NCBI GenBank assembly: GCA_026398415.1
Contig: JAPLSY010000087.1
Coordinates: 17,826-81,825 of the forward strand
Source of the DNA: Kiritimatiellota bacterium
Lineage (GTDB): Bacteria; Verrucomicrobiota; Kiritimatiellia; JAAZAB01
Direction of reading: 5' to 3'
DNA length: 64,000 nt
Shown: positions 701 through 21,799 of the stretch, piece by piece
How the letters are laid out: every line of letters starts with the position of its first letter
How positions within the stretch are numbered: position 1 is the stretch's first letter
The notes under the pieces: model-generated
What the model was told of the DNA's origin: nothing
The model's database searches: none
The model's input: the letters and a program-made list of their open reading frames with translations, nothing else
Made by a program: the position numbers and the translations under genes

Positions 701-726
701 TTGCCTTAAAAAACAAAGGGGGCGGC

Positions 727-3102: not shown

Positions 3103-3265
3103 AAAACTTTTCCCGGAAGCGACGTGAGGCAGCAGGCGGGAACGAATTCAGCAAATATTGTTTTTTCTTGTTGCATCCGGAGTGGGGCAAACTACTGTCT
3201 ATCCGTAAGTGGCATCAGGAGATGCCTGAGCAGTTGCGAAAATAAAGCAAAATGAAGGAGCGAAC

Positions 3266-5185: not shown

Positions 5186-5198
5186 CGAGGTAAAGTTG

Positions 5199-7142
5199 CT
5201 ACCCGGAAAGCTTGTTGCCTGTCAGGCGTTGCCAAAATCGCCAAAATTTCCCGTCAGGTTTTTCGCATCTTTTAACCGTAATTTCCCTGGTCAGAATAGT
5301 TTTCCGTTCCAGGCCGTCGCTGCCCTTGTAGCGGAAATTGGAGTAAGCAATCAGGAACTTGTCGTCTCCAGTGGCCAGCAGCGAGGTGTAGCCGCAGGAA
5401 TCCGCCTGCCGGTCGCTGGATGTCAGGGGTACCAACTTGTAAGGTTCCGTCCAGGTCCAGCCGTTGTCCCCGGAAAAGCGCACTTCCACGCCGGGCCGCC
5501 CGTAGGCCAGGACCATGACGCCGTTTTTCAACGTCAGCATCATCGGTTTTACGCCGTAAGGGTTGAACACCTTCGGCTTGGACCAGGTTTTGCCCATATC
5601 CTGGGAACGGCTGACATACAACGGGCCTACCCCTACTCCGGTATCCGTCCGGATAAAACAAACCATGGTACCGTCTTCGGCAAACTCAAATCCCGGTTCA
5701 TCAAAACCGTCGCGCAGCATGGCCATAGCGTCCGCATCGGTATCAGGTATGTAGGGAATAGTGCCCTGCGTAATGGTGCCCGGCGTCCGCCATTTCCGAC
5801 CGTTATCGGTCGAACGCAGGAAGATAACCCGCCGAAACCGTTCCGAGCCGAGATGCTGACGGGGGAAATAGATATAATATCCCGTCTTGGCTAGCATAAT
5901 GGAATTGTCCGGCGCGACTTCCATGTTGAACCAGTCGCCGCCAAGCAGAGGGAACAAATCTTTATACGCCATCCTTACGCCAAGATACTCGTTGACTTCC
6001 GCAATCTCGGTCACCCATTTATCAGTGTCTTTGTAATAATGGCTAAAACGCATATTCGCCAGTTCCGGGGGCAGGTCCTTGGCCCGGTAAAGCGAAAGTT
6101 TCGACCCGTAGGTTTCGGTCCACTGCCCCACCGGTTCAGGGAGTTTAAGATCGGCAACCTTGAGCGAAGGCGGTACACTATGGCTTAAGCGGTCGCCGTT
6201 TGGCAACAGCAATCCTCCGCCGCTTGATTTGCCGGTGGGAAGCTTCCACGTATTTCCGTCAAGAACAAAATGGCTGGGATATGACGTTTGCCCGGTGCCG
6301 TAAGCGCTTACGCTGTCTTCGCAAATATTAAAGCCGATTGAGATTGCGGGTTGCGTGCGGCTAAGACTCGGGAACTGCCAGTACCCCCAGCGTTTTTCTC
6401 CAACCGGCGCCTGCGCGACCACCAGCGGTTCGGCAATGGTTATCTTGAGTTCTTCTGTTTTTCGGGGATCACTTGTGCTGGCGGCTTTTCGGCTTGCTTT
6501 GCCGGCTTGAGGGATGGTGGCCCAGCGCACATATTCCCACGATGCTTCGCCGAGGCCCGAGCTGCTGGCCGCTCCGAACCCCAGGGCATTGCGGCCTTCA
6601 TATTCCATGACTTCATTGTATTTGCCTTTGCCGTCCAGCTTCAGTTCGCCGTCGGCATACAGCTTGAAATCGTTATTCCTGATTACAACCCGGTACACGT
6701 GAAAATCATTCGTGGTATTCATCTGGCAGGTCAGGTTGCCGTACTGCGCACGGATCCTGTCCGGGTAAAACTCGAAAACCTCCGTGGATATGCCGTTGCA
6801 CACCACTATGCCGCAGAATCCCGACTGGAGCTTCATTTTGGCTTCCGCGATGGTTTCGTCCTCGGCCTGCACCGCCCAGGGATAAGAGAAGAAAAGATAC
6901 TGGCCTTTGTCCGTGCCCCGGTCGGCAATCGACAGGGCGCCGTCCTTTACTTCCGCGACACAGTTGGTGAGGCTTTCCAGGGGGATATCGTATTGCGTGG
7001 CCCAGGGCGTTTTGGGCATTTCGGTTCCCCGGTAGGTTACATTCCATTTCATTGCCTTTTCCTGGGCGTATAACCGCCCGACGGTCGCTACCAGAAAGCA
7101 ACAGCCCAAAATCAAAATCAGCCGCAATTTTCCAAAGTCCAT
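5199..7142 (-). CDS. secreted BNR/Asp-box (exo-alpha-sialidase-like) protein with N-terminal ConA/LamG-like domain
   Basis: GGAGGA RBS precedes the start. Signal peptide MDFGKLRLILILGCCFLVATVGRLYAQ. Several SxDxGxTW Asp-box motifs are present (STDNGRKW, SRSQDMGKTW, SGDNGWTW). It is a paralog of the CDS at 59437-61152. Confidence 0.7.
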   Translation of the reverse strand: MDFGKLRLILILGCCFLVATVGRLYAQEKAMKWNVTYRGTEMPKTPWATQYDIPLESLTNCVAEVKDGALSIADRGTDKGQYLFFSYPWAVQAEDETIAEAKMKLQSGFCGIVVCNGISTEVFEFYPDRIRAQYGNLTCQMNTTNDFHVYRVVIRNNDFKLYADGELKLDGKGKYNEVMEYEGRNALGFGAASSSGLGEASWEYVRWATIPQAGKASRKAASTSDPRKTEELKITIAEPLVVAQAPVGEKRWGYWQFPSLSRTQPAISIGFNICEDSVSAYGTGQTSYPSHFVLDGNTWKLPTGKSSGGGLLLPNGDRLSHSVPPSLKVADLKLPEPVGQWTETYGSKLSLYRAKDLPPELANMRFSHYYKDTDKWVTEIAEVNEYLGVRMAYKDLFPLLGGDWFNMEVAPDNSIMLAKTGYYIYFPRQHLGSERFRRVIFLRSTDNGRKWRTPGTITQGTIPYIPDTDADAMAMLRDGFDEPGFEFAEDGTMVCFIRTDTGVGVGPLYVSRSQDMGKTWSKPKVFNPYGVKPMMLTLKNGVMVLAYGRPGVEVRFSGDNGWTWTEPYKLVPLTSSDRQADSCGYTSLLATGDDKFLIAYSNFRYKGSDGLERKTILTREITVKRCEKPDGKFWRFWQRLTGNKLSG

Positions 7143-7298
7143 TGGATTTCCTCCGTATCTTACAGGTATGTTAATTGCAAATCCCTGTCGTTTGATTATT
7201 GAATATGCTAAATTTTTATGTTTAATTCAAGTCCTATATTACGAACTCTTGGTGAGCAAAAGGAAATCCTGCCACAAAATCAGGAAGGAATAAGCACA

Positions 7299-9608
7299 AT
7301 GGAAATTAAACCATTGAATCGCGGAGGTGCAAGCGGACCAGGCCTTAACCAAAAACGGAAAGCATTGCGCAGAATATTCACGATTTACCTGGGGACTTTG
7401 GGCGGCCTGGCGCTGCTGATCGGCGGCTGCCAGAATCTGGGAGCTTCCGCCAAGGATAAGGCCGATGCCAAGGCTTTGATGACTTTGCGGGCGGAGCGCC
7501 GGGAAATGGCGCATCGGCCCCGTCGGTTGATCTTAAACAACGACGGGGACGATCAAATTTTTGCCAAGGCACCCACGCGGGAAGCGTTCTTGGAAGTGCG
7601 GACCACGCCCCTGGCCGATTCCCAGGTGGACACCATCATTTACTGCACCTCGCTGCCCTTCGGCCTGTTCGCCCACCGGTCGCAGGAAGGCGAGATCCTG
7701 ACCCTGCGGGAATTCCCCAACGGCAAAGGGGGCATGTACCGGAGCATAGTGGCTGACTTCCTGGAGCAGGGGACCGATCCGTTGCAGGTGATGGTCGAGT
7801 GGTGCCGGGCACATGGCCGGGAAATCTTCTGGACCATGCGGATGAACGACGTCCATGACACCTATTACCCTTACTTACTCCCCAAGTTCAAACGCGAGCA
7901 TCCGCAATACCTGCTGGGCACTTCCAATAAACCTCCATGTCACGGCAACTGGACGGCCGTAGATTACGGCGAGCCGGAAGTCCGCGACCGGCTCGTGGGC
8001 TACCTGCGCGAGATCTGTCGGAACTACAATGTGGACGGCATCGAGATGGATTTCTTCCGGTCCCTGGTGTTTTTTCGCCCAGTCGCCGAGGGGGGCGAAG
8101 CGGGGGATGCCGAACGCGGCATGATGACCGACATGGTTCGCAAGGTGCGCCGGATGACCGAGGAGGAGGGACTGCGCCGGGGCCGCCCCATTCTGGTGTC
8201 GGCCCGTACACCCGATTCGATCGAATTCTGCCGGGCTATTGGACTGGACCTGGAACGCTGGATGCAGGAGGGGTTGCTGGATATCTGGGTGGTCGGCGGC
8301 GACTTTCGCCTGAACCCCTGGCCTGAAAACGTTGCGTTGGGCCACCGGCACGGTTTGACGATCTGGTGCGACCTGGATCCGGTCGTCCACAATGCCGCGG
8401 GTCGCTGGAACCGCAACGCGATCGAGAGCATGCGGGCCCGCGCGCTGGAAGCCTGGAGTGCCGGGGCCGACGGGGTATACTTTTTCAACTTCTACGATCA
8501 ACCGAAGGATCCAATGTGGCGGGAATTGGGCGATCCCCGGACCCTGGCAAAGGCCGACCAGGTGATCTTTGCCAACGTCATGGGTCGCACTGGGTTCATG
8601 TCGGCCGACGGAGCGTTGGCGGAGGGGCATCGGTTCGAGACTGTGAGCATGGTCCACCCGGATAACCCCATGCAATTGCGGTCGCATCAAACGCAGCGTG
8701 TCCTGGTGCCGGTGGGCGCCGATCCGCAGGCCTCCTCCAATGGGGCGGCCGACGTCGAGGCACGTTGTCACCTGTTGCTCAACGGCGTGAATGAGGCCGG
8801 CGAATTGCGGGTGAGCCTCAACGGCAAGGTTCTGGATGGAGGCGTCCTGGTGAAGGATTGGTGGGAGGCCCCTGTGCCGCCGGGCCTGCTGCGCGGTGGC
8901 ACCAACGCTTTTGACATTGTTTATACCCCGCCTTCGGATAAGGGCGTAGGCGCCGGCAAAAATACGAACGAGACTTGGAACGTGGTGTATCGCGGCGATC
9001 ATGTGATGCAGTACCCGCAACAGTTGCCCTGGCGCCGCTTGACCGACTGCAAGCAGTACGTCGAGGAGATTCGCAACGGGGCGCTTTACCTGGCCGACCT
9101 CACCGCGGGCGACGCGCAGATGATCAACCTGGCCTATCCCTGGATGGTCAGCCCGGGCGAACGGATCGTTGTGGAGGCACGGGTGAAAGTTTTGGCGTCG
9201 GACGATCCCACGGCCGTCTGTCTGCGGATGGCCGACGGGGCATCCGTGGAAATCCTGGCGTTGGAGAAGGACGGTGTCAGGTTGCTCCACGCGGGGTTGA
9301 AGCATGGTATGAATACAACGGACGCCTTTCACACGTACCGGGTCGAGATCCTCGGGAAGGATATCCGCGTATACGTGGATGGTGGCGTGGCGCTGGACGG
9401 GGCAGGGCGTTTCACGGCCCCCGTTACGGACAAAGGCAACGAGATGCCGTTGGGGTATGGACTGCGGTATTGGAACCGGTGCAGTTTGCTATGGGGATCG
9501 GCCAGCGGCCCGGGCCGGGGCGAGGCGCTCTGGGAGTTCGTCCGGTTCCGCCAATCGGGCGTGCTGTTGCACGACGTGGTCTTGACCCTGCATCATCGCG
9601 GAAAGTAA
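7299..9608 (+). CDS. glycoside-hydrolase-like TIM-barrel lipoprotein with C-terminal ConA/LamG-like domain
   Basis: ATG at 7299 with CAGGAAGGA 10 nt upstream. Lipoprotein signal ...LALLIGGCQ. The C-terminal ~190 aa (FHTYRVEILGKDIRVYVDGG...ALWEFVRF) are homologous to the N-domains of the two sialidase-like proteins. Confidence 0.6.
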   Translation: MEIKPLNRGGASGPGLNQKRKALRRIFTIYLGTLGGLALLIGGCQNLGASAKDKADAKALMTLRAERREMAHRPRRLILNNDGDDQIFAKAPTREAFLEVRTTPLADSQVDTIIYCTSLPFGLFAHRSQEGEILTLREFPNGKGGMYRSIVADFLEQGTDPLQVMVEWCRAHGREIFWTMRMNDVHDTYYPYLLPKFKREHPQYLLGTSNKPPCHGNWTAVDYGEPEVRDRLVGYLREICRNYNVDGIEMDFFRSLVFFRPVAEGGEAGDAERGMMTDMVRKVRRMTEEEGLRRGRPILVSARTPDSIEFCRAIGLDLERWMQEGLLDIWVVGGDFRLNPWPENVALGHRHGLTIWCDLDPVVHNAAGRWNRNAIESMRARALEAWSAGADGVYFFNFYDQPKDPMWRELGDPRTLAKADQVIFANVMGRTGFMSADGALAEGHRFETVSMVHPDNPMQLRSHQTQRVLVPVGADPQASSNGAADVEARCHLLLNGVNEAGELRVSLNGKVLDGGVLVKDWWEAPVPPGLLRGGTNAFDIVYTPPSDKGVGAGKNTNETWNVVYRGDHVMQYPQQLPWRRLTDCKQYVEEIRNGALYLADLTAGDAQMINLAYPWMVSPGERIVVEARVKVLASDDPTAVCLRMADGASVEILALEKDGVRLLHAGLKHGMNTTDAFHTYRVEILGKDIRVYVDGGVALDGAGRFTAPVTDKGNEMPLGYGLRYWNRCSLLWGSASGPGRGEALWEFVRFRQSGVLLHDVVLTLHHRGK

Positions 9609-9802: not shown

Positions 9803-11230
9803 GTGCGACGCACGATGAAAACGCAACACCTGCAACGGATGTTGATCGGGTTGGGGCTAATAATGGCCTTGGCGACGCCCCGGGCGTTTGCCACGGACTG
9901 GTATGTGACCACCAACGGCACCGGCGACGGGTCGGCGAGCTGGGCAAATGCCACAACTAACCTGCAGGGCGCGATAAATTCGGCAACCGACAGCGAGACA
10001 GTCTATGTGACCAACAACGCCACCTATTACCTCACGAATCAAATAACCGTCAGCTACGCTATTACGGTGCGGAGTTGGGGGCCGGGCGGAATACTGGACC
10101 CGACCAACACGATCCTGGACGGCAATTATCCCACTACGACCAACCGGCATTTTACGCTTAACAAGTACGGAGCTACGCTGGCTGGTTTTACGCTCACGAA
10201 CGGATGGGGCGAATCCGATGGTAATTCCAATACGGCCAGTGGCGGGTCAATCTATTTATCACGCGGAATAGTGACAAACTGCATTGTCATGTATAACTAT
10301 GCGTTAGGCACGAACAATGGCGGTTGGGGGGGTGGCGGTATATTGTTGATTACCGGCAGCGGGGGTGTGTGGAATTGCACAATTAGCGCTAATTCGTCAA
10401 GACAATTGGGCGGTGGCATCTACGCCAAAAACGGTGGCCCTTGGAAGATTGCAAATTGCATGGTCGCCAATAATGATTCGCGCTCAGAAGGAGCAGGAAT
10501 TAATATGGGAGCATCGGGAACGATTATCAGCAATTGTTGGATTGTCTCCAATTCCACATTTGGGAGCGCTGGCGGAGTTCGTATGAGTGCCGGAATCGCA
10601 GGGCAATGTGTTAATTCCTTTATCATAGGTAATACTGCCCGTGGCTCCTGGTCTCCCGGCGGTGGCATTCGGCCAAACTCGGGCTTGATCAGAAATTGCC
10701 TGATTGCCAGTAATGTGTCGCAATATGGAGCTGGATTAGCTATTGGCAATGCGCCGACGGAAAGTAGTTCAATTCAAAACTGTACGATTGTCGGCAACAT
10801 AGCCACTAATGGCGAGGGAGGCGGATTCGATTTAGCGGATTACAATGGTTTTGCAAAACTCGAAAACACCATCATTTGGGACAATAGCACACTCAAGGCA
10901 GGCACTATTTCCTCTAATTACTACATTAATCGCTCTGATCCGGCACTTGCGTTTGCTACCTTTACTAACTGCTGCACCTCGCCGCTAATTGTCAGCACTT
11001 ATGCTTCCGAGGTCAATACCATTACCAACGATCCGCGATTTGTGAAAACCGCAACCGATAATTACCAGTTGCAACCGGATTCGCCCTGCATCAATGCCGG
11101 CGTGAATCGGGCCTGGATGGAAGGTGCTCTGGATGTTTATGGCCATCGGCGCATTGATAATTTCCGCAGAACCGTTGATATCGGCGCCCATGAATACCTT
11201 GGTAAAGGCACAGTGTTCAGATTCCAGTAA
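9803..11230 (+). CDS. secreted right-handed beta-helix (pectate-lyase-fold) protein
   Basis: GTG start (VRRTMKTQ). The paralog at 61195 has the same GTG frame, with synonymous substitutions in the first codons. Signal peptide, then beta-helix-type repeats (N/S/T/G-rich coils: NCTI, NCIV, NCWIV, NCLIA). The C-terminal ...CINAGVNRAWMEG...DIGAHEY motif is shared with the paralog. Confidence 0.65.
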   Translation: MRRTMKTQHLQRMLIGLGLIMALATPRAFATDWYVTTNGTGDGSASWANATTNLQGAINSATDSETVYVTNNATYYLTNQITVSYAITVRSWGPGGILDPTNTILDGNYPTTTNRHFTLNKYGATLAGFTLTNGWGESDGNSNTASGGSIYLSRGIVTNCIVMYNYALGTNNGGWGGGGILLITGSGGVWNCTISANSSRQLGGGIYAKNGGPWKIANCMVANNDSRSEGAGINMGASGTIISNCWIVSNSTFGSAGGVRMSAGIAGQCVNSFIIGNTARGSWSPGGGIRPNSGLIRNCLIASNVSQYGAGLAIGNAPTESSSIQNCTIVGNIATNGEGGGFDLADYNGFAKLENTIIWDNSTLKAGTISSNYYINRSDPALAFATFTNCCTSPLIVSTYASEVNTITNDPRFVKTATDNYQLQPDSPCINAGVNRAWMEGALDVYGHRRIDNFRRTVDIGAHEYLGKGTVFRFQ

Positions 11231-11351: not shown

Positions 11352-11786
11352 ATGAGCTGGGTCCAGGAGTTCAAGCAGTTCGCCATGCGGGGTAATGTGA
11401 TGGATATGGCGATTGGTATCGTCATCGGCGCCGCGTTCGGCAAAATCGTATCTTCGCTGGTCGCGGATATCATGATGCCGCCTATCGGAAAACTGATGGG
11501 CAACGTGGATTTTTCCAGCCTGTTCATCGTGCTGGGCGCCGGCACTTATCCTTCGCTGGCGGCCGCCAAAGCGGCCGGCGCCGCGACACTTAATTACGGC
11601 CTCTTCATTAATACGGTTATCGATTTCATCATCGTGGCTTTCGCCATCTTTCTGCTTGTGAAAGGCGTGAATACCATGCACCGCAAGGAGGAAACCAAGG
11701 TCGCGCCGCCTATGCCGCCGACGCCTTCAGCGGAAGAAAAACTTCTGGCTGAAATCCGGGATCTGCTGAAACATAAAGCGGTCTGA
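11352..11786 (+). CDS. mscL: large-conductance mechanosensitive channel MscL
   Basis: AAGGAG RBS. Sequence [46 protein letters not shown] is the textbook MscL N-terminus. Length is 144 aa. Confidence 0.9.
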
Positions 11787-11815: not shown

Positions 11816-12460
11816 GTGACCCATTGTCCAAAGTGCGGAGTGCCTGTTGACCAGGGGACCCGATTCTGCCCGGCGTGTGGAACGCCGGCCGGCGGCGCCG
11901 GCACACCTCAGCCGCACCGGTCCGGGCGAGCGCTGAAATTGTGGGCCTTGGCCGGACTGGCGTGTTTTGCCTGCCTCATCATCATGGCAATCAATTTCAA
12001 CCTGTTCCTCCGGCTGGTGGCAATTGGCGGAACAGTCCTGTTTATGCTTTCAATCGCGATGATGTTCCTGACCTTCCGGAAAGCAAAAAAGATAGCCCCT
12101 GCCCCCCTGGTCATTTCAATAATCATGAGCCTGCTTACCCTGTGGGTTTATGCGCTCTTCCTCGGCATCCATTTCAGCGGCACGGTGAAATTCATGGGGC
12201 TCCTTTCCGGCATACTTGTAGGCATCGGGTGGGCGCTGACCACACCCGTCCGGAGCAACAACGGCATAGTTGAAAGGGAAGGAAACGTCTGGTACCTGGT
12301 CGTCTGGGGCCTGGTTTTCGCGATCAACCAGCTTGCCGCTGCCATCACCGGCCGGCCGCCGCACATTGCAATGGTGCTCCTGCTCCTCGGCACGGGGATC
12401 GTGCTCGGCACCAGCGGAACTTTCATCGCAAGGTATTACTCAATGAAGGCCAGGCATTGA
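11816..12460 (+). CDS. zinc-ribbon domain membrane protein (N-terminal CPKCG...RFCPACG ribbon + ~4 TM helices)
   Basis: GTG start with AAGGAACGGAG upstream. It lies 30 bp after mscL. A CxxCG-x8-RFCxxCG zinc ribbon is followed by hydrophobic helices. Its stop (TGA 12458-12460) is 1 nt from the next gene's ATG. Confidence 0.6.
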   Translation: MTHCPKCGVPVDQGTRFCPACGTPAGGAGTPQPHRSGRALKLWALAGLACFACLIIMAINFNLFLRLVAIGGTVLFMLSIAMMFLTFRKAKKIAPAPLVISIIMSLLTLWVYALFLGIHFSGTVKFMGLLSGILVGIGWALTTPVRSNNGIVEREGNVWYLVVWGLVFAINQLAAAITGRPPHIAMVLLLLGTGIVLGTSGTFIARYYSMKARH

Positions 12461-12461
12461 C

Positions 12462-15400
12462 ATGAAAAACAGGAAATCCGGACTGCGTTCCATGTGCGGA
12501 CGATTGCTGGCGGTAATATTTCTGGCATCGTTTGCCGCATTGCCGTCCAGCGCCGAATCTTTCCTGGTGCGCTGCGGAATAGTCGGTGAACACGGTGGTT
12601 ACTGGGTCAACTACGACGGAAATCCCAAGGGGAACGGCATCAAGTTCGGGGGGGACGACAAGCTTAATTATTACTCGACAACCTGTTTTGTGAAACCAGG
12701 CGAGACCGCACGGGTGCTTATAAACCCGTATGCCGAGAGCAAGCCGATAGCAGGGCGATTCGGAGCAGGTTCCTGCGATATTGTCTTTACGGTCAATAAC
12801 GCCGTGTACGAGGGCAAGCAAGATGATAAACGGCGGGGAGACGGGTGGAAATTGCCTGTCAAGCCCGGCTGGAACAAGGCCGTGATCAAGGTCGATGCCT
12901 ATGCATATAATAACGGCAATGTGCAGCACATCGGCTCAATGAGCCAGGAAGTATCCTTCTTTGTGTTCGTCATACAGGTCGAGCGGGCAGGGCAATTAAG
13001 GTCACCGTTTTCGGGTTATCCTGAAGTCAATTCGGGATACATGATGCCGTCGCATGATGGGACGGTCTATGCCTGCCTGACCTGCTTTACGAGGCCGCGC
13101 GGCGGCGGAAGCAAGTACGCCCTGGTGCACATGGAGCAGAGCGGCCGCATAATTAAGATTTACGCGATACATCCCGATGTTTCTTCCAGCCCGGTGGCAT
13201 ATGATTCGGAAGGCGGGCTGTATGTGAATGTCATGGAAAGGATAGTCAGGTTCAATCCGGACGGGTCTTTTGACAGGTCCATTGTTTCTTTTAATGAGAA
13301 CTATGAAGAAGAAATAACCGGCCGGCATCTGGAGGAAAAGGTTTATCCGACAACAGTTAATGGCAAGAAAACGCTGACGCCTGCATACCCGGACCTGCAT
13401 CCATCTGCGTCATGCAGCGAAATGGCAGTAAACGGCAAATATGTTTACCTGGTGGCAGCGCAAAGAAAGAATTCCAGTAATTACGATGATGTTCTTTGCC
13501 GGCTTGACCTTGAGTCCGGTAAAGTTGATGTTCTTTCGCAGGTAAATGTGCTGGACGGCCCTGTTCCTGGTCCCAACGGCCTGGTGTACATGCGCTCGAA
13601 ACCCGTCAACAAAGGAAAGTCGCCGCGTGGCACGACGATGTGTGATGTCCTTGGTTTTGATGCCAACGGGCGGCCGTCGAGCAGTTTCACAATAGCCAAT
13701 GCGGGATACGATCTTGACGGATTTGATGGAGCCGGCTGCTTATACAATAGCTGTGTTGTCTCGCAGGATGGACTCAGGGAGTCGACATATATACCGGAAG
13801 GACGCCTGAGGCATGTCCGTCTATCCTCGCCTACAAGATATATCGATCTTGTGGGAGGACAGGAAGTCAAGGATAACACGCTTCAAGCACAGGGCGGTCA
13901 CTGGATGGATGGCGGGTCTTATTATTGCTTATACCGAGAGGATGGTAATATTGCCAGGTTTACTTCATTGTTCCCGGGAACCGGCAGTGTGCCACAACCG
14001 CAGCCGGCAGTCGTCAAGCTTGGCAAGAAGGGATTCTTTTCCGGAAAGGATACAGGCGCAAAGGAATCACCTGCCGAGAAAAAGCCGGCAGTCAAATCTG
14101 ATCCTGGAAACAATGCGCCGGCGGATGAGGAAAATGCCGTGGAGCAGATTCCGTCTTCCATAGGCAACGAGTGGACTCCCGCCCAAACAGATAACACATC
14201 AAATGAAGGCGGGGCAAATGCTGATAATACGGCAGGTAATGCTGCCGGAGCGGCCGCGGCAGGCGCAGGCGTGGTCGGAGCGCTGGGCGCGTTCGGGGCA
14301 TACCTGATGATGAAGGCCAACAACATGGGCCTCAAGGATGTGATCGATGGCGTGAAGGACCTGTTTGAAACCGCGAGTGCGCCGGAGCCCGAAACGCCGC
14401 GGATCCTGTTCCAGGAGCCGCCGCATAAAGATGGCGAGGTTAACGACCGGGACGAGGTGTGGAGCGACGAGGATCGCGGCTGGGTGGGCAGGAATCTGTA
14501 CGAGCAGGAAAAAGAGCGAAGAAAGAACATTGACCTGGTCAACGAAGAAGCCCTGCGCACTTCGGACAAGTCGGTAAAGGAAGCCTTTGACCAGTGGCAG
14601 GAATCGAAGAAGAAACTGGAAGACATGCGAGCGTACCAGCTGAAGGAACACAAGATTGAAGCGATGAGGCTGGAACTCGATCGCAGGCAAAGAGAATCGG
14701 ACCGCGGTGCGAGCTGGACGGAAACCATAAGCGACAACCTGGAGAGGGACTGGAAGGAATTGAAGGAAGACTGCGGGAAACTCTACGATGCGGCCACCGA
14801 CGCCAACACCTACAGCAAGATCTACGAAGGAAGCAAAGGGCTGCGAGGCAAGATCGCCGAATACGCCTGGGAAGCGGGCTCGCATCCCTGGGATACCACC
14901 ATCAAGGTGTTTTCAGCCACAGGCAAGGTGCTCGGAGAGACGGCGGCCGCCGTGTATGAAAAGCCGGAACTGATGTTCATAGCCGCAGGCAAACTGATTG
15001 AGGCTGGAATCGTTGATCCGATACTTGCCGTGACCGACAAGAACAAGCGCTTGTCGGACAGATTGCTGGCCGTGGCCAAACTTGAAGTTGATTATGCCCT
15101 CATGCCGTGGGCAACAACGAAAGTGCTGGGCTTGGCCGGTTCGATCGGAAGCAGGGTGATTGAGACGGTTGGACAGACCGGCGGCAGGATAATGAAGGTG
15201 GCTGGCAAGGCTGGTGAAAACCTTGTGGAAGGCCTGCGTGGTCTCGGGCTTGGCGAAAAAGTTGCCGAAGAAGGCGCAGAACAGATAGCAGGCAAGGGAT
15301 TGAACCCGGCACTGAGTGCCACGGAAAAACGGCTGGCGTTCCTGGAGTCGAGCGATACCCTGGCCAGGAAGGCAAAAATGATGGAGAACCTGAACCAGGT

Positions 15401-16271
15401 GGCCGACGCGCCGGAAGGCATGCGCATGTTCATGTTGAACGAGGTGCGCAAGGAAGATCCTGCTATTTTCAACCTTGTCCGGAAGGAGTTACACCCTGAG
15501 ACGGCCGCGAAAATCGGCCAAACCCTCGAGGGGTTCAACCAGGAAGCATTGAGCAAGACATCGCAGGCGTTGACCAGTAACGGTTACGTGGTTAAAGAAG
15601 TTAAACTGGCCGGAAACGTCCGCGGCGCCGACTGTGATTCCTACTGGAAGGTAGTGAAAGACGGACGCGTACTGTCCGAGGCCGAGACGCGCAAGGTGGT
15701 GGACAGCGCTAGAAAGGGCGTGTTCCAGGATGAATTCGGCCACCTCCGTTCAACGCCGGATGAACTGGGGCACAAGACCATGAACGCCAGTCCCGAGAAG
15801 TTCGCGGCCGAACCAGGTGACCTTGGCATCCAGGAAGTGACTATAAAACCCAAGCCCGACGGGACACTTGACTTTGACCAGGCCGTGAAGGCCGGACCGG
15901 ATCCGGCCAGGACAAGGGGCGTCGCACAGGCCGAACTTATGTCCGACAAAGTGGCAACTCCGGAAGTGGTGCACTCTGTCGGAGAAGTTCTGAAGACAAA
16001 AACGGATCACTTGAAAGGACTCGGGAGGCCGGCGACCACCACAGAGTTGCGTGACATGGCCAGGGAAATAACTAAAACCGGCACTCGAACGGTGGACGCC
16101 CTGACGGAAAAGACCGGGGCATCAATGACCCCGGACTACCAGGCTCTGCGGAGGCAGCTGGCGCTGGTGGCGGCCGGGGATGCGAAGGGCGGGATACTGC
16201 CAACGCTGGATAAGATAGACGCGATTCTTGCGGGACAAATAAAAGTGCTTCAAAATGCAGTTGCCAGGTAA
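12462..16271 (+). CDS. giant bitopic hypothetical protein (1269 aa): signal peptide, ~560-aa extracytoplasmic domain, single TM (~aa 600-625), ~640-aa charged coiled-coil C-terminal domain
   Basis: Uninterrupted ORF, translationally coupled to the upstream zinc-ribbon gene. N-terminus MKNRKSGLRSMCGRLLAVIFLASFAALPSSAES is signal-like. Gly/Ala-rich hydrophobic segment AGAAAAGAGVVGALGAFGAYLMM. The C-terminal half is charged and coiled-coil (EQEKERRKNIDLVNEEALR...). No known family recognised. Confidence 0.65.
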   Translation: MKNRKSGLRSMCGRLLAVIFLASFAALPSSAESFLVRCGIVGEHGGYWVNYDGNPKGNGIKFGGDDKLNYYSTTCFVKPGETARVLINPYAESKPIAGRFGAGSCDIVFTVNNAVYEGKQDDKRRGDGWKLPVKPGWNKAVIKVDAYAYNNGNVQHIGSMSQEVSFFVFVIQVERAGQLRSPFSGYPEVNSGYMMPSHDGTVYACLTCFTRPRGGGSKYALVHMEQSGRIIKIYAIHPDVSSSPVAYDSEGGLYVNVMERIVRFNPDGSFDRSIVSFNENYEEEITGRHLEEKVYPTTVNGKKTLTPAYPDLHPSASCSEMAVNGKYVYLVAAQRKNSSNYDDVLCRLDLESGKVDVLSQVNVLDGPVPGPNGLVYMRSKPVNKGKSPRGTTMCDVLGFDANGRPSSSFTIANAGYDLDGFDGAGCLYNSCVVSQDGLRESTYIPEGRLRHVRLSSPTRYIDLVGGQEVKDNTLQAQGGHWMDGGSYYCLYREDGNIARFTSLFPGTGSVPQPQPAVVKLGKKGFFSGKDTGAKESPAEKKPAVKSDPGNNAPADEENAVEQIPSSIGNEWTPAQTDNTSNEGGANADNTAGNAAGAAAAGAGVVGALGAFGAYLMMKANNMGLKDVIDGVKDLFETASAPEPETPRILFQEPPHKDGEVNDRDEVWSDEDRGWVGRNLYEQEKERRKNIDLVNEEALRTSDKSVKEAFDQWQESKKKLEDMRAYQLKEHKIEAMRLELDRRQRESDRGASWTETISDNLERDWKELKEDCGKLYDAATDANTYSKIYEGSKGLRGKIAEYAWEAGSHPWDTTIKVFSATGKVLGETAAAVYEKPELMFIAAGKLIEAGIVDPILAVTDKNKRLSDRLLAVAKLEVDYALMPWATTKVLGLAGSIGSRVIETVGQTGGRIMKVAGKAGENLVEGLRGLGLGEKVAEEGAEQIAGKGLNPALSATEKRLAFLESSDTLARKAKMMENLNQVADAPEGMRMFMLNEVRKEDPAIFNLVRKELHPETAAKIGQTLEGFNQEALSKTSQALTSNGYVVKEVKLAGNVRGADCDSYWKVVKDGRVLSEAETRKVVDSARKGVFQDEFGHLRSTPDELGHKTMNASPEKFAAEPGDLGIQEVTIKPKPDGTLDFDQAVKAGPDPARTRGVAQAELMSDKVATPEVVHSVGEVLKTKTDHLKGLGRPATTTELRDMAREITKTGTRTVDALTEKTGASMTPDYQALRRQLALVAAGDAKGGILPTLDKIDAILAGQIKVLQNAVAR

Positions 16272-16325
16272 CATGGTCGGCAGGTGGAAGGAAACAATCC
16301 AGCAGACTGCCGGGGAGGATGAGCG

Positions 16326-17417
16326 ATGTTTAGAATTGGCATGACAATATCAGGGTTTCTTGGAAGTTGCGAGAAGGCCGGGCTCAAACCGTCGGCGTTA
16401 TCTCCGGCAAAATTACTCCTGGATCAGTTCGGAAAGGGAATGGAACCCGATCGGAGCGATTTCGCCTTACCCGTGCCGGCTGAGGAGTTTGCGAAGACCA
16501 TGCAAACACTGCTCCAGCCGGATCATGTCATTGCCGCGAGATATGGCGGGCATATGGCTGATCCGCAGGAAGTGCGCTTTGCTTTCGCAAGGATCGAAAC
16601 CGCCGCACATATTGCGGCGATCTCGCCACTGGCGCCTGCCAGGGTATTCATTGAGTCTTTTGACGGCACGGACGGATGGATGGAATGGATCCTGGACCGT
16701 GTGGATCCTCTTAGACTGGCCGCAAGTAGAGGTCAGGCCGCAACGGGTAAACTGACCTGGGTTCAACTCCTGTATTTTCTCCATTCCGTCGACATGTACA
16801 GGAGATGCTACTACCGGTCGATGCTGGATCAGGCGCCGGTGGACGAGTTTGAGTTCTCGGAGACGGAATATCTTGAGGATCTACAGAATTCTGTTTTGTC
16901 GGCGGACTGGCGCTGGCTTGTGCCTTGCCTGATGAGCATGGTTCCCAGGGCCGTGCCTGATTCGGTTCTTGGACTGAAAAACCAGTTCGACTGTTTGAAA
17001 GAATACGGGGTGATAACCGGATCCAAATCGGGGCTCATGAAATTCACCGACCACGGGCAGAATCTCGGGCTGGAATTCATGCTTCAATGGGTGTCCGCGC
17101 TCGGGCTGGAGATATGCAGGGGAGACGGGAAGCAGGCGGAGGAAAGCAGGCTTTTCGTATTGGGCACGAACAAGGGGGCGCACCTGTTTGAATTTGAGAA
17201 GAATGAAATCAGCTACACGGTCGCAGGCGGGCAAGGAGTAAAGGAGTGCCTGAATAGACTTCTGAACAGGTTGGGCCCGCTGCCCAAAGCCGCGGCCGTG
17301 AAGCAATCCACACCGCCGCCCCTTGAATCTGTGCCCGACAGACAATTCTGTTCGCAGTGCGGAAAGCCGCTCGCGCTAAAGGGCCGCTTCTGCCCGGCCT
17401 GCGGTGCCGCGGCCTGA
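16326..17417 (+). CDS. hypothetical cytoplasmic protein with C-terminal zinc ribbon (CSQCGKPLALKGRFCPACG)
   Basis: GGGGAGGA RBS 6 nt upstream. 54 bp after the giant gene. The C-terminal CxxCG-x7-RFCxxCG motif matches the ribbons of neighbouring proteins. Confidence 0.55.
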   Translation: MFRIGMTISGFLGSCEKAGLKPSALSPAKLLLDQFGKGMEPDRSDFALPVPAEEFAKTMQTLLQPDHVIAARYGGHMADPQEVRFAFARIETAAHIAAISPLAPARVFIESFDGTDGWMEWILDRVDPLRLAASRGQAATGKLTWVQLLYFLHSVDMYRRCYYRSMLDQAPVDEFEFSETEYLEDLQNSVLSADWRWLVPCLMSMVPRAVPDSVLGLKNQFDCLKEYGVITGSKSGLMKFTDHGQNLGLEFMLQWVSALGLEICRGDGKQAEESRLFVLGTNKGAHLFEFEKNEISYTVAGGQGVKECLNRLLNRLGPLPKAAAVKQSTPPPLESVPDRQFCSQCGKPLALKGRFCPACGAAA

Positions 17418-18587
17418 TTATTCGGTCGATTTCTCTGTCGCGGTGAACCGAAAAGTGCCGATCAGGTGGACCATCACAAAATAGTATTTCTTGAACAGCT
17501 TCTTCGGCGCGGTATAGCTGATCATGTAATAATACGGCTCACGGTCGATTATCGCCTGCATCTGCTGGAATGCCTGTCCACTTGGCATCTCAAAACGGGC
17601 GACCATGTAAAAAGCCTTTTTCCCGCTCAAGTCGCCCTGGTCGGTCTTGTCCAGCTCGAACTCATCCATGGTTTTCCATTGCGACAGTATTTTATCGGCT
17701 TCGCTTCTGACCGTGCTGCCGGGTTTCTTGTTGATGATCTGGAAATTAACCGTAGTGTCATATTCTTCGGTGCCCTTGGCCCCGCAAAAGATATGCGCGT
17801 TGTCCTTGACCTCCGATTCCCAGTGCGCCGGAAGCTCGGCAACAAACCCGAACTTCTTATTCACGTACTTATCGTACTTGAGCCCCGCGGGGCCGGCAGC
17901 GGCCTCTTCGCCCGATTTAGGATTCCAATCCTTCAGGGGCGACCCTGCCGGATAATCCTGCTTATCCATTCCGGAATTATTATTTGCGGTTCCTGACCCC
18001 ACCCCGGCGGAAACGTCCTTCCCGGGTAGCTTGAGGTCAGGCAGTTCCGCCCCCGGCTTGGGACTAACCGGGATATCTGTGTTCACCAAACCATTAATAT
18101 CCCGCTTCTTGCCGTCGCCGGATGACCCGATGATGGCAAGGATAATGATTATGCCGAGGACACCTAACGCAACCAGCACAAGCGGCAGGCATCCCTTCTT
18201 CCGCGCAGGCTTCCCCGCTGAAATCGCATCCTTCACCGGCGCCCCGCATCCAGCACAGAATTTGGCGCCCGGCTTGATTTCCGCTCCGCAGGCGGAACAC
18301 TTGTTTACGGACGGCTGCCCGCAGGGCGCCCCACAGCTGCCACAGAACCTGGCGCCAGGCTTAAGCGCGGCTCCGCATTTCGAGCAGGCAAGGGCATGGC
18401 CGGAGGTATGCCCCGTTACCGCCGCCACGGCATTCTTGATGTCCTGTTTGGTTACAAGCTCCTTGTCCGCATTGTAAACGCCATCCATCAGGAATTCCGC
18501 AGGCATGTCCTTCGCACTCGTGTAAGTCCCCGTCTTGGTGCCAAACCTGAGGATTCCGAGTTTTCTAAGAATATCGATAAAACTCAT
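17418..18587 (-). CDS. double-zinc-ribbon membrane protein with C-terminal extracytoplasmic (PsbP/DcrB-like?) domain
   Basis: The N-terminal cytoplasmic part carries two tandem ribbons (CSKCGAALKPGARFCGSCGAP; CSACGAEIKPGAKFCAGCGAP). One TM follows (LPLVLVALGVLGIIIILAIIG), then a ~220-aa C-terminal domain. Its stop abuts the stop of the convergent gene at 17417 with zero spacer. Confidence 0.6.
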   Translation of the reverse strand: MSFIDILRKLGILRFGTKTGTYTSAKDMPAEFLMDGVYNADKELVTKQDIKNAVAAVTGHTSGHALACSKCGAALKPGARFCGSCGAPCGQPSVNKCSACGAEIKPGAKFCAGCGAPVKDAISAGKPARKKGCLPLVLVALGVLGIIIILAIIGSSGDGKKRDINGLVNTDIPVSPKPGAELPDLKLPGKDVSAGVGSGTANNNSGMDKQDYPAGSPLKDWNPKSGEEAAAGPAGLKYDKYVNKKFGFVAELPAHWESEVKDNAHIFCGAKGTEEYDTTVNFQIINKKPGSTVRSEADKILSQWKTMDEFELDKTDQGDLSGKKAFYMVARFEMPSGQAFQQMQAIIDREPYYYMISYTAPKKLFKKYYFVMVHLIGTFRFTATEKSTE

Positions 18588-20611
18588 ACCTGCTCCTTTG
18601 CCTGCAATGCGATTAAATCAGGACAATTGGCGCAGCATCATCGCCAAACGACGATGCCACGTTCTTAATTTCTGCATGCGGTTTGCTGCGCCAGAAGCTT
18701 CTTCAACCCCGCCAGGCATTTCTCGGCGGAGCCTGGCCGGTTTTGAAATAATTACACTTCACACACTAAGCCGACAGCACTCTCTTTAATAGCCTCCTCT
18801 TTTCTTATCGTTTGTCAAGATGGCAATGGATTTTCAACCGGCGGAACTTGGCAAACTGACGAACGAGATAATATCCCGGTTGACCCTTTGCCGGGACGGG
18901 TATAGCATTAAACTTTAAAGGAATAATGCCGGCTAAGTTCGTACTGCGTTGTTTCTAAACTGGTGTCATTGTTCGGAAAACAAAGCGACGTAATATTAGT
19001 GCTTTGTTACCAGAGGAGGGCGTTATGCGGCCGCGGATGCTGCCAATCATTGTGGGCGCCGCCGGGTGGCGGGCGCTTGCCGCACCGGGACTATCCCTCC
19101 TGCTCACCGTGCCCCTTTTGGCCCAGACCATGAACCCGCGGTATTATAACCCCGGCACGCCTACGCTCACGGATATCTGGGTCGACCCACTTAACGGAAA
19201 CGACGGCCATTCCGGTGCGAACCGCAGTCAGGCCTTGCGCAGTCTGGAAGCCGCGTGGAACAGTATCCCCAACGACGCCACACTCACAACGACAGGCTAT
19301 CGCATCCAGTTGGTCGCAGGCATCTACACAGCCGACTTGATTCCGAATTACATGGAACGGCATTACGGCACGTATGCCTGCCCGGTAATCATTCAAGCTG
19401 TCGATGGCCAGGGCACGGCCACGCTGTTGCATGACCTGAATATCTTCGACTGCCACTATCTGTACCTTGTTGATTTTAACATTACCGCGGGGGCCAACAA
19501 CCTGATCCACGGCGAGGCCTGCACCAATCTACTGATGCACGGCCTGACCCTGCAGGGCGATACCAATGCAACGCAGGAAACCATCAAGATGAATCAGTGC
19601 CAGTATATTTACCTGGAAGACAGCGATGTCTCCGGCGCCTTTTGGATGGCCGTGGACTTCTTCGCCGTCCAACATGGCCACATTGTGGGCAACCGCCTGC
19701 ACAATGCCGACTGGGTCGCTTATCTCAAGGGCGGCTCGGCCTATTTCCGAATTGAAGCCAACGAGATCTATGACGGCGGCACAATCGGGTTCACGGCCGG
19801 CCAGGGCTCCGGTTTCGAATTTATGGCATCTCCGTGGCTACACTATGAAGCATCGGACATTAAATTCATTAATAACGTCGTCCACGACATCGACGGCGCC
19901 GGCATGGGTGTTAACGGCGGCTACAACATCCTCCTGGCGCATAACACCCTCTTCCGTGTCGGCCGTCGTTCACATGCGATAGAAGTCGTCTTCGGTGAAC
20001 GCAGTTGCGATGGCAACACAGGGCGCTGCGCCGAACTACTGGCCGCCGGCGGTTGGGGCACGGTGAACGCTGGCGTCTCTGAGCCGATCCCCAATTGCCA
20101 TGTCTATATCTACAACAACATCCTTTATAACCCCGCCGGCTACCGGAGCGCAGACAGCCACTTGGCGGTCTATGCCCCGCGTACTCCCTCCATCGGCTCA
20201 AACATCCCTTCCCCGGCGGAGACGGATACCGACCTGCGCTTTCGCGGTAACATCTTCTGGAACGGGCCGCCGGATCTTGCCCTGGGCATCGGTGACAGCG
20301 ACCAAGGCGGCCAGCCATCAAACCCCACCTGCAACCCAGCGCAATTCCTCGCGGATAACACCGTCAACAGCCTTGAACCACAACTCATAAATCCGACCGG
20401 CGCAGACTTCCGGCCGCTCATCGGCGGCAACGTATTTTCAACGGCGACGTATGCCATTCCGGATTTCACGGGAACAGATCGCCCGGCCCCGCCGGCGGAG
20501 CCGCAAGGCAATCTGCTCAACACCGTTGAGCGCGATTATTACGGCTATCCCCGTTTATCCTCCAGCCCGCCGGGCGCCTTTGCCCAAGCCAATACAAACA
20601 CAACGCCCAAT

Positions 20612-21305
20612 GACTACGATGGCGACGGCAAGTCTGACCTGGCCGTGTACCGTAACGGCAATTGGGCCATCCAAACGATGGCGGGTAACGTTATCGCTTA
20701 CGGCTGGGGCGAGCCGGGCTGGATACCAGTGTCAGGGGATTATGACGGCGATGGCAAGTCCGACCTGGCCGTGTACCGTGACGGCAATTGGGCCATCCAA
20801 ACGATGACGGGTAGCGTTATCGCTGACAGCTGGGGCGAGCCGGGCTGGATACCAGTGTCAGGGGATTATGATGGCGACGGCAAGTCCGACCTGGCCGTGT
20901 ACCGTGACGGCAATTGGGCCATCTGTACGATGGTGGGTAGCATTATCGCTCGTGACTGGGGCGAGCCGGGCTGGATACCAGTGCCAGGGGATTATGATGG
21001 TGGGTAGCATTATCGCTCGTGACTGGGGCGAGCCGGGCTGGATACCAGTGCCAGGGGATTATGATGGCGACGGCAAGTCCGACCTGGCCGTGTACCGTGA
21101 CGGCAATTGGGCCATTCACACGATGGCGGGTAGCATTATCGCTGGCGGCTGGGGCGAGCCGGGCTGGACTCCCGTGTCAGGGGATTATGATGGCGACGGC
21201 AAGTTTGACCTGGCCGTGTACCGTGACGGCAATTGGGCCATCCAAACGATGGCGGGTAACATGATCGCTGACAGCTGGGGCGAGCCGGGCTGGACTCCCG
21301 TGCCG
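20612..21305 (+). repeat. tandem ~120-bp (40-aa) FG-GAP-like coding repeats, ~5.7 units, ~90% nt identity
   Basis: Repeated gattatgatggcgacggcaagtccgacctggccgtgtaccgtgacggcaattgggccatc... units are directly visible. Confidence 0.85.
20934..21067 (+). repeat. perfect 67-bp direct tandem duplication (2 x tgggtagcattatcgctcgtgactggggcgagccgggctggataccagtgccaggggattatgatgg)
   Basis: Exact character-by-character match of 20934-21000 and 21001-21067. 67 is not a multiple of 3, so the duplication causes a +1 frameshift and an immediate TAG. Confidence 0.9.
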
Positions 21306-21799
21306 TAACGCCTGAGTATGCGTGTCATTCTGGAAGCTAATATGCGCCGGTAAGTACAATGTTTGGCGGACAAGATTCTAGGTAAGGTCTCCAGTGATTT
21401 TCACCACGCCGGTTTAATTGTCGCTTGAACTACAGAATTATCTCCCCACGCCTGTCTGATCTGGCTGGCAACACCCTCCACAAAATATTTAAGAATGCCT
21501 AAATAACTCCAAAACGTTCCAAAGGCATTCCTATCACCCAAATTCGCCAAAAGGTTCAAAATTAAAGTCGGTTTGGTCGCCAACGCTGATAAAAATATTG
21601 GCCATCCAAGCCGTTCCGACATGTTTTATGCATGATTATTCTCGTCAAGCCATCGATAATCCAGTATTGACTTGAAGGTTCCCTTAAGCTTGGAAAACTA
21701 TGGCTTCAGAATACTAAAGCTTAAAAATTGATCGCAAAATGGCGCAGCCATCGCAAAACTTATTGCTAAATGGTCGCCCGCCTGAAAACAGAGGAAAGA

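Follow-up and report, generated by a model that had tools for sequence, protein, structure and literature searches.

A horizontally scattered four-gene membrane module with zinc-ribbon proteins and a possible polymorphic transmembrane sensor-effector at its center

A four-gene membrane module in a Kiritimatiellota genome

A 64,000-nucleotide (nt) stretch of a Kiritimatiellota metagenome-assembled genome (contig JAPLSY010000087.1, positions 17,826 to 81,825; the window, with positions counted from its first letter) carries a previously undescribed four-gene membrane module that is scattered horizontally among bacteria and is centered on a gene encoding a protein of 1,269 amino acids (aa), here called the big protein. 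No description of such a module was found in the literature. Our tentative reading, drawn from sequence comparison, is that the module is a polymorphic transmembrane (TM) sensor-effector, in which an enzyme domain would be controlled by a cognate zinc-ribbon partner.

The big gene (12462..16271, plus strand) begins with ATG and continues through 3,810 nt in one unbroken frame, as the initial annotation had stated. Its product, a single-pass membrane protein by its predicted topology, is deposited at NCBI as a "hypothetical protein" from a Kiritimatiellota genome (MCX6993993.1), and the identical protein occurs on 5 contigs. Searches of the Pfam, NCBIfam, PADLOC, and PHROG libraries returned 0 family matches for the big protein, and its relatives were likewise unmatched.

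Architecture and membrane topology

Topology was assigned by hydropathy and charge analysis, which recovered the layout first proposed for this protein: a signal peptide, an outside part, one TM helix, and a large inside part, with the folded portion of the outside part now placed at about 490 aa (aa 32 to 520). The signal peptide (aa 1 to 31; 12462..12554, plus strand), read from the sequence, is of the Sec type, with a basic N terminus (K2, R4, K5, R9, and R14), a hydrophobic core (LLAVIFLASFAAL; Kyte-Doolittle [KD] hydropathy, 1.74), and a PSSA/ES site with cleavage predicted after SSA. An equivalent N terminus is present in the relative P0001.

The ectodomain (aa 32 to 520; 12555..14021, plus strand) appears beta-rich and has a high content of Gly, Asp, Tyr, and Val. 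Its first ~145 aa resemble a beta sandwich; about six "D..G.LY" units come next, at intervals of 47 to 75 aa, and could form a propeller. It contains 11 of the 14 cysteines of the big protein, with 1 more in the signal peptide and 2 in the 651-aa inside part. Identity to the ectodomain of P0001 is 52 to 61%, and alignments at 23 to 32% identity to P0003, P0004, P0006, P0008, P0009, P0034, P0041, and P0046 conserve six G..Y units; P0014 also matches (33% identity). The Pfam propeller family DUF5122 scored below its cutoff (E = 0.051; 14.3 bits, cutoff of 27), an ectodomain profile had no match in the PDB, and an AlphaFold model built from a two-sequence alignment was unusable (pLDDT, 29). An acidic low-complexity linker defined by its Ala/Gly/Asn/Pro composition (aa 521 to 594; 14022..14243, plus strand) follows, and the net charge of aa 521 to 595 is −5.

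The Gly/Ala-rich TM helix (AGAAAAGAGVVGALGAFGAYLMM; aa 595 to 617, followed by K618; 14244..14312, plus strand; KD, 1.58) lies within a 29-residue uncharged stretch (aa 589 to 617). The claim of a single TM helix was borne out by 36 relatives that have a helix at the same place, 32 to 87 aa ahead of a conserved motif. Across these relatives, the 15 residues before the helix contain a mean of 0.67 Lys plus Arg and about 4 acidic residues, compared to 2.36 Lys plus Arg in the 15 residues after it, which often start with GVGRRE. A cleavable signal peptide and a stop-transfer helix with positive-inside flanks, the marks of a single-pass type I membrane protein, were thus both recognized by hydropathy and charge. 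Because of the signal peptide and the positive-inside bias around the helix, the ectodomain is predicted to lie outside and the C-terminal half inside; the helix would span the inner membrane, leaving the ectodomain periplasmic and an enzyme-like domain cytoplasmic. A downstream partner that ends in a Cys4 ribbon, a fold that must form in the cytoplasm, adds to the evidence that large parts lie on both membrane faces.

In one subgroup, the helix is cleanly deleted and the signal peptide is kept (P0033, P0035, P0037, and P0043 and loci L006, L007, L008, and L011; compare P0037 with P0040). These loci belong to Cohaesibacter and Roseibium and include the cultured Cohaesibacter celericrescens. 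The loci whose big protein has no helix are exactly the four loci that have no Cys4-ribbon partner, and this coincidence of helix loss with partner loss supports the topology independently, in a suggestive rather than statistical way. An upstream zinc-ribbon-RDD membrane protein, whose RDD part matches PD-T4-6 of PADLOC, and a DcrB-like exported protein stand in for the downstream ribbon partner at these four loci.

The inside part (~650 aa) had been described as a ~640-aa charged coiled-coil domain, a description that applies to a fraction of its length. It is divided into four sections: a juxtamembrane motif (HKDGEVNDRDEVWSDEDRGWVGRNLYEQEK), a charged helix, a Gly/Ala-rich helical region, and a globular domain. 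High charge is confined to a helix or coiled coil at aa 669 to 768 (14466..14765, plus strand; 48 to 50% Asp, Glu, Lys, and Arg), and a Rad50 coiled-coil model matched weakly at aa 681 to 804 (E = 2.9e-4). The helical middle region (aa 769 to 940; 14766..15281, plus strand; 22 to 30% Gly plus Ala) is common to P0069, P0007, P0011, and P0020, and aa 941 to 1269 form the compact globular domain. The "repeated KV.G" segments noted earlier do exist, as three occurrences at aa 822, 887, and 912.

The juxtamembrane motif (HKDGEVNDRDEVWSDEDRGWVGRNLYEQEKERR; aa 655 to 687; 14424..14522, plus strand), recognized by a motif expression and by alignment, defines the family. Its consensus is [H][RK]DG[ED]VN..G[ED]VWS.ED.GW[VI]GRNLY[ED]QE[KR], and the regular expression was found in 37 of 55 sequences (the window protein and 54 collected relatives). 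In a 23-sequence alignment, D657, G658, V666, and W674 are invariant. The core common to the family is a Gly/Ala-rich hydrophobic helix, then the motif after 32 to 87 residues, then the charged helix.

A rare family with interchangeable ends

The family came to light in an exhaustive HMMER search, which recovered 53 relatives from 1.84 billion representative proteins, 30 of them at E ≤ 1e-10 and 19 at E ≤ 1e-30. They match different parts of the query, such as the ectodomain or the C-terminal 320 aa, and most match only around the TM helix. A word-indexed single-sequence search of 5.8 billion clusters returned one relative only, and a word-indexed class A profile returned only two close relatives. 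A word-indexed profile that included the Gly/Ala/Pro-rich segments returned 0 relatives, with low-complexity words probably crowding the candidate list. Only 12 loci were present in 185,579 species genomes, and a scan of viral contigs found no relative. The members belong to at least five phyla and include Kiritimatiellota/Verrucomicrobia, Planctomycetota, Gemmatimonadetes, Alphaproteobacteria (Cohaesibacter, Roseibium, Nitratireductor, Xanthobacteraceae, and Beijerinckiaceae), and Gammaproteobacteria (Thiothrix and Thiotrichaceae). Related loci were drawn from species genomes, metagenomes, and the contigs of individual relatives; they include related genomes, and counts over them are not independent.

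Both ends of the protein vary. Among the ectodomain types are the large beta domain of the window protein, a ~250-aa DcrB-like domain, a domain with the motif LP..YWP.GFAWH, and PAN or immunoglobulin-like (Big_1) modules, and in P0011, P0020, and P0045 a polytopic membrane N terminus replaces the ectodomain. The C termini fall into at least six classes, A to F: class A, that of the window protein (LAG..GGADxD..W ... GHK.MN.SPEKFAA); class B (FRTPGKK.S.INTDRDFRV); class C (KIGADRDVTYSIYD); class D (ENTGSHARKG.NYRG..SDIDF); class E (SGSGKPGEPGVDLDMYP); and class F (...RC...NH.A.RVILPDGRRY.LDYWE, with conserved Cys, His, and Asp). Comparison with hhalign supported homology of classes B and C (97.7%) and gave a weak link between A and C (E = 0.0018). 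Profile comparison found no link from class D or E to the other C-terminal classes.

Exchange of halves and divergence within a conserved neighborhood

Two relatives show this variability. P0001 is 52% identical to the big protein over aa 11 to 690 and cannot be aligned beyond, and P0069 is 63% identical over aa 535 to 1267, mostly from the TM helix onward, with an unrelated ectodomain. Because P0001 shares the front half only and P0069 is its mirror image, the big protein is, by these alignments, a mosaic joined at the TM/motif core, where the halves recombine independently.

A second line of evidence is locus L018, the contig of P0008, which is the orthologous locus in a related genome. It has DUF4838 hydrolases, a gene for a protein with four TM helices, the big gene, a zinc-ribbon partner, a convergent gene for a DZR (double zinc ribbon) protein, and MscL. 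Between the window and L018, identity is 88.7% for MscL, 84% for the DZR protein, and 60% for the four-TM protein. In contrast, the big proteins are 29% identical over the first ~770 aa and unalignable after that, where the C-terminal class differs, and the partner bodies are unrelated. At the DNA level the flanks are 86 to 89% identical, but inside the big gene only nt 14430 to 14621 align (72.6%), starting at the core motif. In this comparison of no more than two or three genomes, the big gene together with the downstream partner gene forms a hypervariable island within a conserved neighborhood. MscL (11352 to 11786 in the window and 12078 to 12512 in L018) adjoins the module on opposite sides in the two genomes, a sign of local rearrangement around the module.

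Tandem family members were found at three loci (L012, 5537 to 11770; L016, 3528 to 9482; and L032, 1 to 7243). In L012 and L016, the tandem copies belong to one C-terminal class and share a single partner, but their ectodomains are not alike. The L032 copies share only the TM/core region (66% identity over ~225 aa), and their C-terminal regions differ.

Zinc-ribbon partners that follow the C-terminal class

The initial annotation had proposed checking whether zinc-ribbon proteins co-occur with the big protein, and the outcome strongly supports such a link. All four canonical zinc ribbons of the window lie within the module, in the three genes flanking the big gene, and zinc-ribbon proteins flank the big gene in every related locus examined except L019 and the truncated L002. 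The partner ribbons are of the CxxC-x(n)-CxxC type and match the Pfam models PF13240/PF12773. Of 113 flanking proteins in related loci, 13 matched Zn_Ribbon_1, more than any other Pfam family, and RDD came next with 4. The other flanking genes were those of ordinary transport and metabolism.

The first partner, upstream (11816..12460, plus strand; 214 aa), combines an N-terminal zinc ribbon (CPKCG...FCPACG; Zn_Ribbon_1, E = 8.4e-8) with a multipass membrane domain, and its stop codon ends 1 nt ahead of the big gene start. Homologs adjoin the big gene in L001 (45% identity), L018 (60%), L004, L009, and L012, and the N terminus of P0036, from an indel-rich assembly, is another (46% over 202 aa). 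The second partner, immediately downstream (16326..17417, plus strand; 363 aa), is predicted to be cytoplasmic. A Pro-rich linker near its end leads to a terminal zinc ribbon (CSQCGKPLALKGRFCPACG; nt 17349 to 17402), matched at aa 339 to 361 by Pfam DZR/Zn_Ribbon_1 (the two E values are 3.6e-4 and 1.1e-4). The third, convergent partner (17418..18587, minus strand; 389 aa) pairs a double zinc ribbon with a DcrB-like ectodomain and has one TM helix (Zn_Ribbon_1, E = 9e-13; DZR, 8e-10; DcrB, weak at 0.0039); its homologs are 84% identical in L018 and 48% identical in L015, with similar genes in L021, L004, L009, L010, and L012. The N-terminal ~45 aa of the third partner carry a conserved motif without a family match, LRKLGI(L/I)RFGTK(T/S)GTY....P.EFLMD, that recurs in L018, L015, L021, and L010 (4933 to 5274).

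Directly downstream of the big gene, a protein with this same ribbon at its end was found in ~20 loci. When partner bodies were compared after removal of the ribbon, they were unrelated between classes C, E, and F and the family that the A, B, and D partners form. Class C partners (L018 and L021), which are TPR-like and ~200 aa long, have matches only to one another, the class F partner is a 150-aa GYF-like protein, and the class E partner (L013) is unrelated to all others. The A/B/D partners are one divergent family with subclusters that largely follow class: the window partner matches that of L004 (164 bits), those of L009, L010, and L012 match each other (225 to 380 bits), and that of L003 matches that of L005 (97 bits). 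The exception is L020, where a class A protein with a different middle region has a partner nearer the class B partners. In these comparisons, the C-terminal ribbon is constant and the partner body varies in step with the cytoplasmic half of the big protein. Such a pattern would be expected of a body that binds the C-terminal domain and of a ribbon that docks to a constant element.

A candidate enzyme at the C terminus

The initial annotation recognized no catalytic motif, and alignment of the C-terminal domain calls for this view to be revised. The "type A" globular domain (aa 941 to 1269; 15282..16268, plus strand) was modeled with AlphaFold2 from 14 class A sequences (pLDDT, 89.7; pTM, 0.84) as a compact alpha+beta domain of 330 aa, and it is a candidate enzyme. 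Across 14 relatives with 27 to 72% identity, G1051, G1055, D1057, D1059, N1108, E1112, K1180, E1202, K1205, T1206, and R1209 are invariant. An invariant G-x3-G-A-D-x-D hairpin extends from G1051 to D1059, with D1057/D1059 encoded at nt 15630 to 15638.

Numbered as in the model (protein position minus 940), the domain consists of long helices at 13 to 99, a hairpin (103 to 110/118 to 126), a helix at 133 to 151, short strands, and a four-helix C-terminal bundle. Residues G111, G115, D117, and D119 are in and just after the hairpin turn, and helices 72 to 99 and 133 to 151 flank the hairpin; invariant E172 directly follows a short strand (164 to 166), and no helix separates the two hairpin strands. 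In this model, the acidic pair and the basic residues from the helical lobe plausibly form a metal- and phosphate-binding site.

A Foldseek search of the type A model against the PDB and BFVD found no match at E ≤ 0.001. Nonsignificant matches (E of 0.11 to 0.9) include the nucleotidyltransferase-fold enzymes ANT(4''), AAD(9), DrrA, CdnC, MNT, and CapRel. Sequence and profile searches of the PDB with the cytoplasmic half, class A, class D, the core motif, and the ectodomain gave nothing below E = 0.1, and no kinase, GGDEF, helix-turn-helix, or cyclase output domain was among the Pfam matches of the big protein and its relatives.

Minimal nucleotidyltransferases, such as ANT(4'), AAD(9), the DrrA/GlnE AMPylators, MNT, and the AbiEii/MenT toxins, offer the nearest comparison. 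Like them, the modeled domain appears to have two lobes, an alpha+beta lobe and a helical bundle, with a Gly-preceded DxD pair where a beta strand begins and invariant Lys, Arg, and Glu on helices of the second lobe. Such enzymes also recur among the weak Foldseek matches, and class D has a textbook GS-x12-SDIDF. Unlike them, it has no significant structural match (E of 0.11 to 0.9; TM-score of at most 0.35), a Gly-to-DxD spacing of 5 to 6 rather than the classical 9 to 13, and no helix between the strands of the model. No member has a Pfam NTP_transf match, and classes A and D are unlinked: the class D relatives fit the signature (GSHARKG.NYRG..SDIDF) but are not detectably homologous to class A.

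The sensor-effector reading and the evidence against it

A mechanism for the sensor-effector reading can be outlined. The ectodomain would recognize an external ligand, with phage, a competitor's product, or a kin signal as candidates, and the oligomerizing Gly-rich helix and the coiled coil would relay the signal to the C-terminal domain, which may be a metal-dependent (DxD) enzyme, possibly nucleotidyltransferase-like, that acts as the effector. The cognate partner would bind and restrain it or present a substrate to it, and its own zinc ribbon, along with those of the two membrane partners, could dock the partner to the membrane complex.

The rarity of the family, its patchy spread, the shuffled halves, the divergence within conserved flanks, the enzyme-like C termini, the covarying partner, and the tandem ectodomain variants together point to a diversifying module of conflict or recognition rather than to a housekeeping scaffold. 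We favor, with reserve, a module of this kind whose logic resembles that of toxin-antitoxin pairs. A more specific proposal, which we regard as rather doubtful, is that the big proteins are a new class of polymorphic receptor-effectors, single-pass membrane sentinels of a toxin-antitoxin-like immune or kin-recognition system with an unseen effector fold. The recognition and enzymatic halves would be shuffled independently at the TM/juxtamembrane joint, and the enzyme would be restrained by its cognate partner, which the common ribbon would tether to a few membrane proteins that carry zinc ribbons. Membrane anti-phage systems (Zorya, Kiwi, and similar systems in PADLOC) are likewise patchy, multigene membrane modules thought to sense envelope events. 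In contrast to those, the present loci had no PADLOC match except the generic RDD domain of PD-T4-6 in neighbors, formed no consistent defense island, and had no relative in the scan of viral contigs. For the four window module proteins and six relatives, PADLOC-DB v2 gave 0 matches, and in other loci its only match was this RDD part, in neighboring genes.

Several observations weigh against the sensor-effector reading. The principal one, which it leaves unexplained, is the TM-less subgroup: because these forms have a signal peptide without an anchor, their "cytoplasmic" half should by sequence be exported, which does not fit a cytoplasmic effector that uses nucleoside triphosphates. The co-occurrence of helix and partner probably reflects a single evolutionary event, not four. 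Some TM-bearing members have no partner (L019, L032 gene 2, and L017). The TM helix of the window copy, with 8 Ala and 6 Gly, is marginal in hydrophobicity (KD, 1.58), and no component of the module has a characterized homolog. As for the enzyme, the best Foldseek match was not significant (E = 0.05; TM-score of at most 0.35), and the Pol beta-like signature hG[GS]-x9-13-[DE]h[DE]h does not occur in class A, where LAG1051NVRG1055AD1057CD1059 has a spacing of 5 to 6. The model is therefore called only possibly nucleotidyltransferase-like, on the basis of the motif and the list of weak matches.

Gene fusions in P0036 and P0024 were considered as Rosetta-stone evidence and were downgraded, as both contigs carry frameshifted genes. 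A defense-island setting was rejected as a general rule, as flanks are mostly transport and metabolic genes and the PADLOC matches are generic domains. The locus of P0024 (L015) is an exception, with GmrSD (type IV restriction; 1 to 999) on one side and a type I restriction-modification system (16272 to 18631) on the other. The L015 assembly is indel-rich, and its dnaX is split into several open reading frames (ORFs).

Alternative explanations

The initial annotation suggested a trans-envelope signaling or scaffolding protein. The transmembrane layout stands, but scaffolding does not suit a protein that ends in an enzyme-like globular domain. Read in this way, the big protein would be a housekeeping receptor or envelope organizer with structural zinc-ribbon proteins or, as a subvariant, a receptor whose C-terminal domain makes a nucleotide second messenger. 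We consider this unlikely. The topology and the coiled-coil segment after the TM helix fit a receptor, the neighbors of the module in the window include the housekeeping MscL and polysaccharide hydrolases, and the DZR partner is well conserved between the window and L018 (84%). However, housekeeping receptors are not so rare or patchy, and whole ecto- and cytoplasmic halves are not expected to be swapped between lineages; housekeeping signaling fits poorly because of this extreme rarity, the mosaic makeup, and the 29% identity between genomes whose flanks are 84 to 89% identical. The kinase, GGDEF, helix-turn-helix, and cyclase outputs of such receptors were also absent from the Pfam matches.

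PknB-type receptor Ser/Thr kinases are single-pass bacterial receptors with a cytoplasmic enzymatic output. They share with the predicted layout of the big protein an ectodomain, one TM helix, a juxtamembrane segment, and a cytoplasmic catalytic domain, and the Gly-rich helix and coiled coil would suit signaling by oligomerization. Unlike these kinases, the big protein is reversed in orientation, with an N-terminal ectodomain behind a cleaved signal peptide; its output domain is unrelated, both of its halves are polymorphic, and its zinc-ribbon partners are apparently obligate.

Another alternative, which we judge improbable, is a Sec-exported polymorphic toxin, with an ectodomain that binds a receptor on the target cell, Gly/Ala-rich and Gly-rich helices that aid translocation, a C-terminal toxin, and a zinc-ribbon immunity protein encoded downstream. 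Polymorphic toxin systems of the CdiA-CT/CdiI, Rhs, and colicin/pyocin types (Zhang et al. 2012, PMC3482391) resemble the present family in several respects. A conserved backbone carries interchangeable enzyme-like C-terminal domains (here a shared TM/motif core followed by one of at least six classes, among them DxD classes and one with Cys, His, and Asp), the next gene downstream varies together with the C-terminal domain, and the spread is patchy and seemingly horizontal, with strong divergence between otherwise similar genomes. The N-terminal domains are variable and of binding types (PAN, Big_1, and DcrB-like), the window helix is marginally hydrophobic, and the TM-less subgroup, with a signal peptide only, should be fully exported.

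The differences are as extensive. In the big protein the variable domain follows a stop-transfer-like helix and is predicted to be cytoplasmic, and the charge bias around this helix fits an anchor; versions with a polytopic N terminus (P0011, P0020, and P0045) cannot be released. The N-terminal half is swapped as well, and tandem genes vary the N-terminal domain and keep the C terminus, the reverse of orphan toxin cassettes; no orphan C-terminal/immunity cassettes were seen among more than 25 loci examined. Export would depend on a Sec signal peptide only, as Pfam scans found no T5, T6, T7, or other trafficking domain, no Pfam toxin family matched, and the neighborhood contains neither secretion-system genes nor known trafficking domains. 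The downstream proteins share a constant zinc ribbon, and most of them (the A/B/D partners) are one family, unlike immunity proteins, whereas the TM-less, exported forms are the ones without the supposed immunity gene.

A fusion of two genes by assembly or frameshift error, or a decaying pseudogene, is effectively refuted: the source is a metagenome assembly and P0024 and P0036 do sit on indel-rich contigs, but the frame is unbroken over 3,810 nt, the identical sequence is on 5 contigs, the C-terminal fold is modeled confidently, and homologs show the same continuous architecture in dozens of independent assemblies, one of them an isolate genome, so that the fusion artifact considered in the initial annotation was not found.

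Other features of the window

Upstream of the module, the region from 622 to 9608 is a cluster of genes for large exported proteins of polysaccharide degradation, similar to DUF4838/GHL10 and to BNR/sialidase proteins; in L018, too, the module is flanked by DUF4838 genes. Between these and MscL, 9803 to 11230 encode a 475-aa exported Gly/Asn/Ser/Thr-rich repeat protein that is similar to a right-handed beta helix and has no Pfam match.

Downstream, a 126-bp tandem array at 20618 to 21304 encodes 42-aa FG-GAP units with ~90% matches, and a perfect 67-bp duplication at 20929 to 21067 breaks the frame. The same FG-GAP repeat is carried by ORF 19004..21007 (beta helix and FG-GAP; 667 aa) and by ORF 20868..21308 because of this break. 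The likely cause is a frameshift, a slip in assembly, or a duplication of very recent date.

Implications

If the sensor-effector reading is true, the module would represent an undescribed coupling of recognition outside to a swappable enzymatic effector inside bacteria, with a conserved membrane joint as the recombination hinge and zinc ribbons as the common docking device. The effector would have a new fold, the common but unexplained proteins that combine a zinc ribbon with a membrane domain would gain a possible role, and the family would be one overlooked by current catalogs of defense systems and toxins. A member is encoded in the cultured marine bacterium Cohaesibacter celericrescens H1304, which makes parts of the hypothesis directly testable. 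Should the mechanism prove wrong, there would still be new descriptive facts in the family, its motif, its mosaic makeup, and the conserved gene module.

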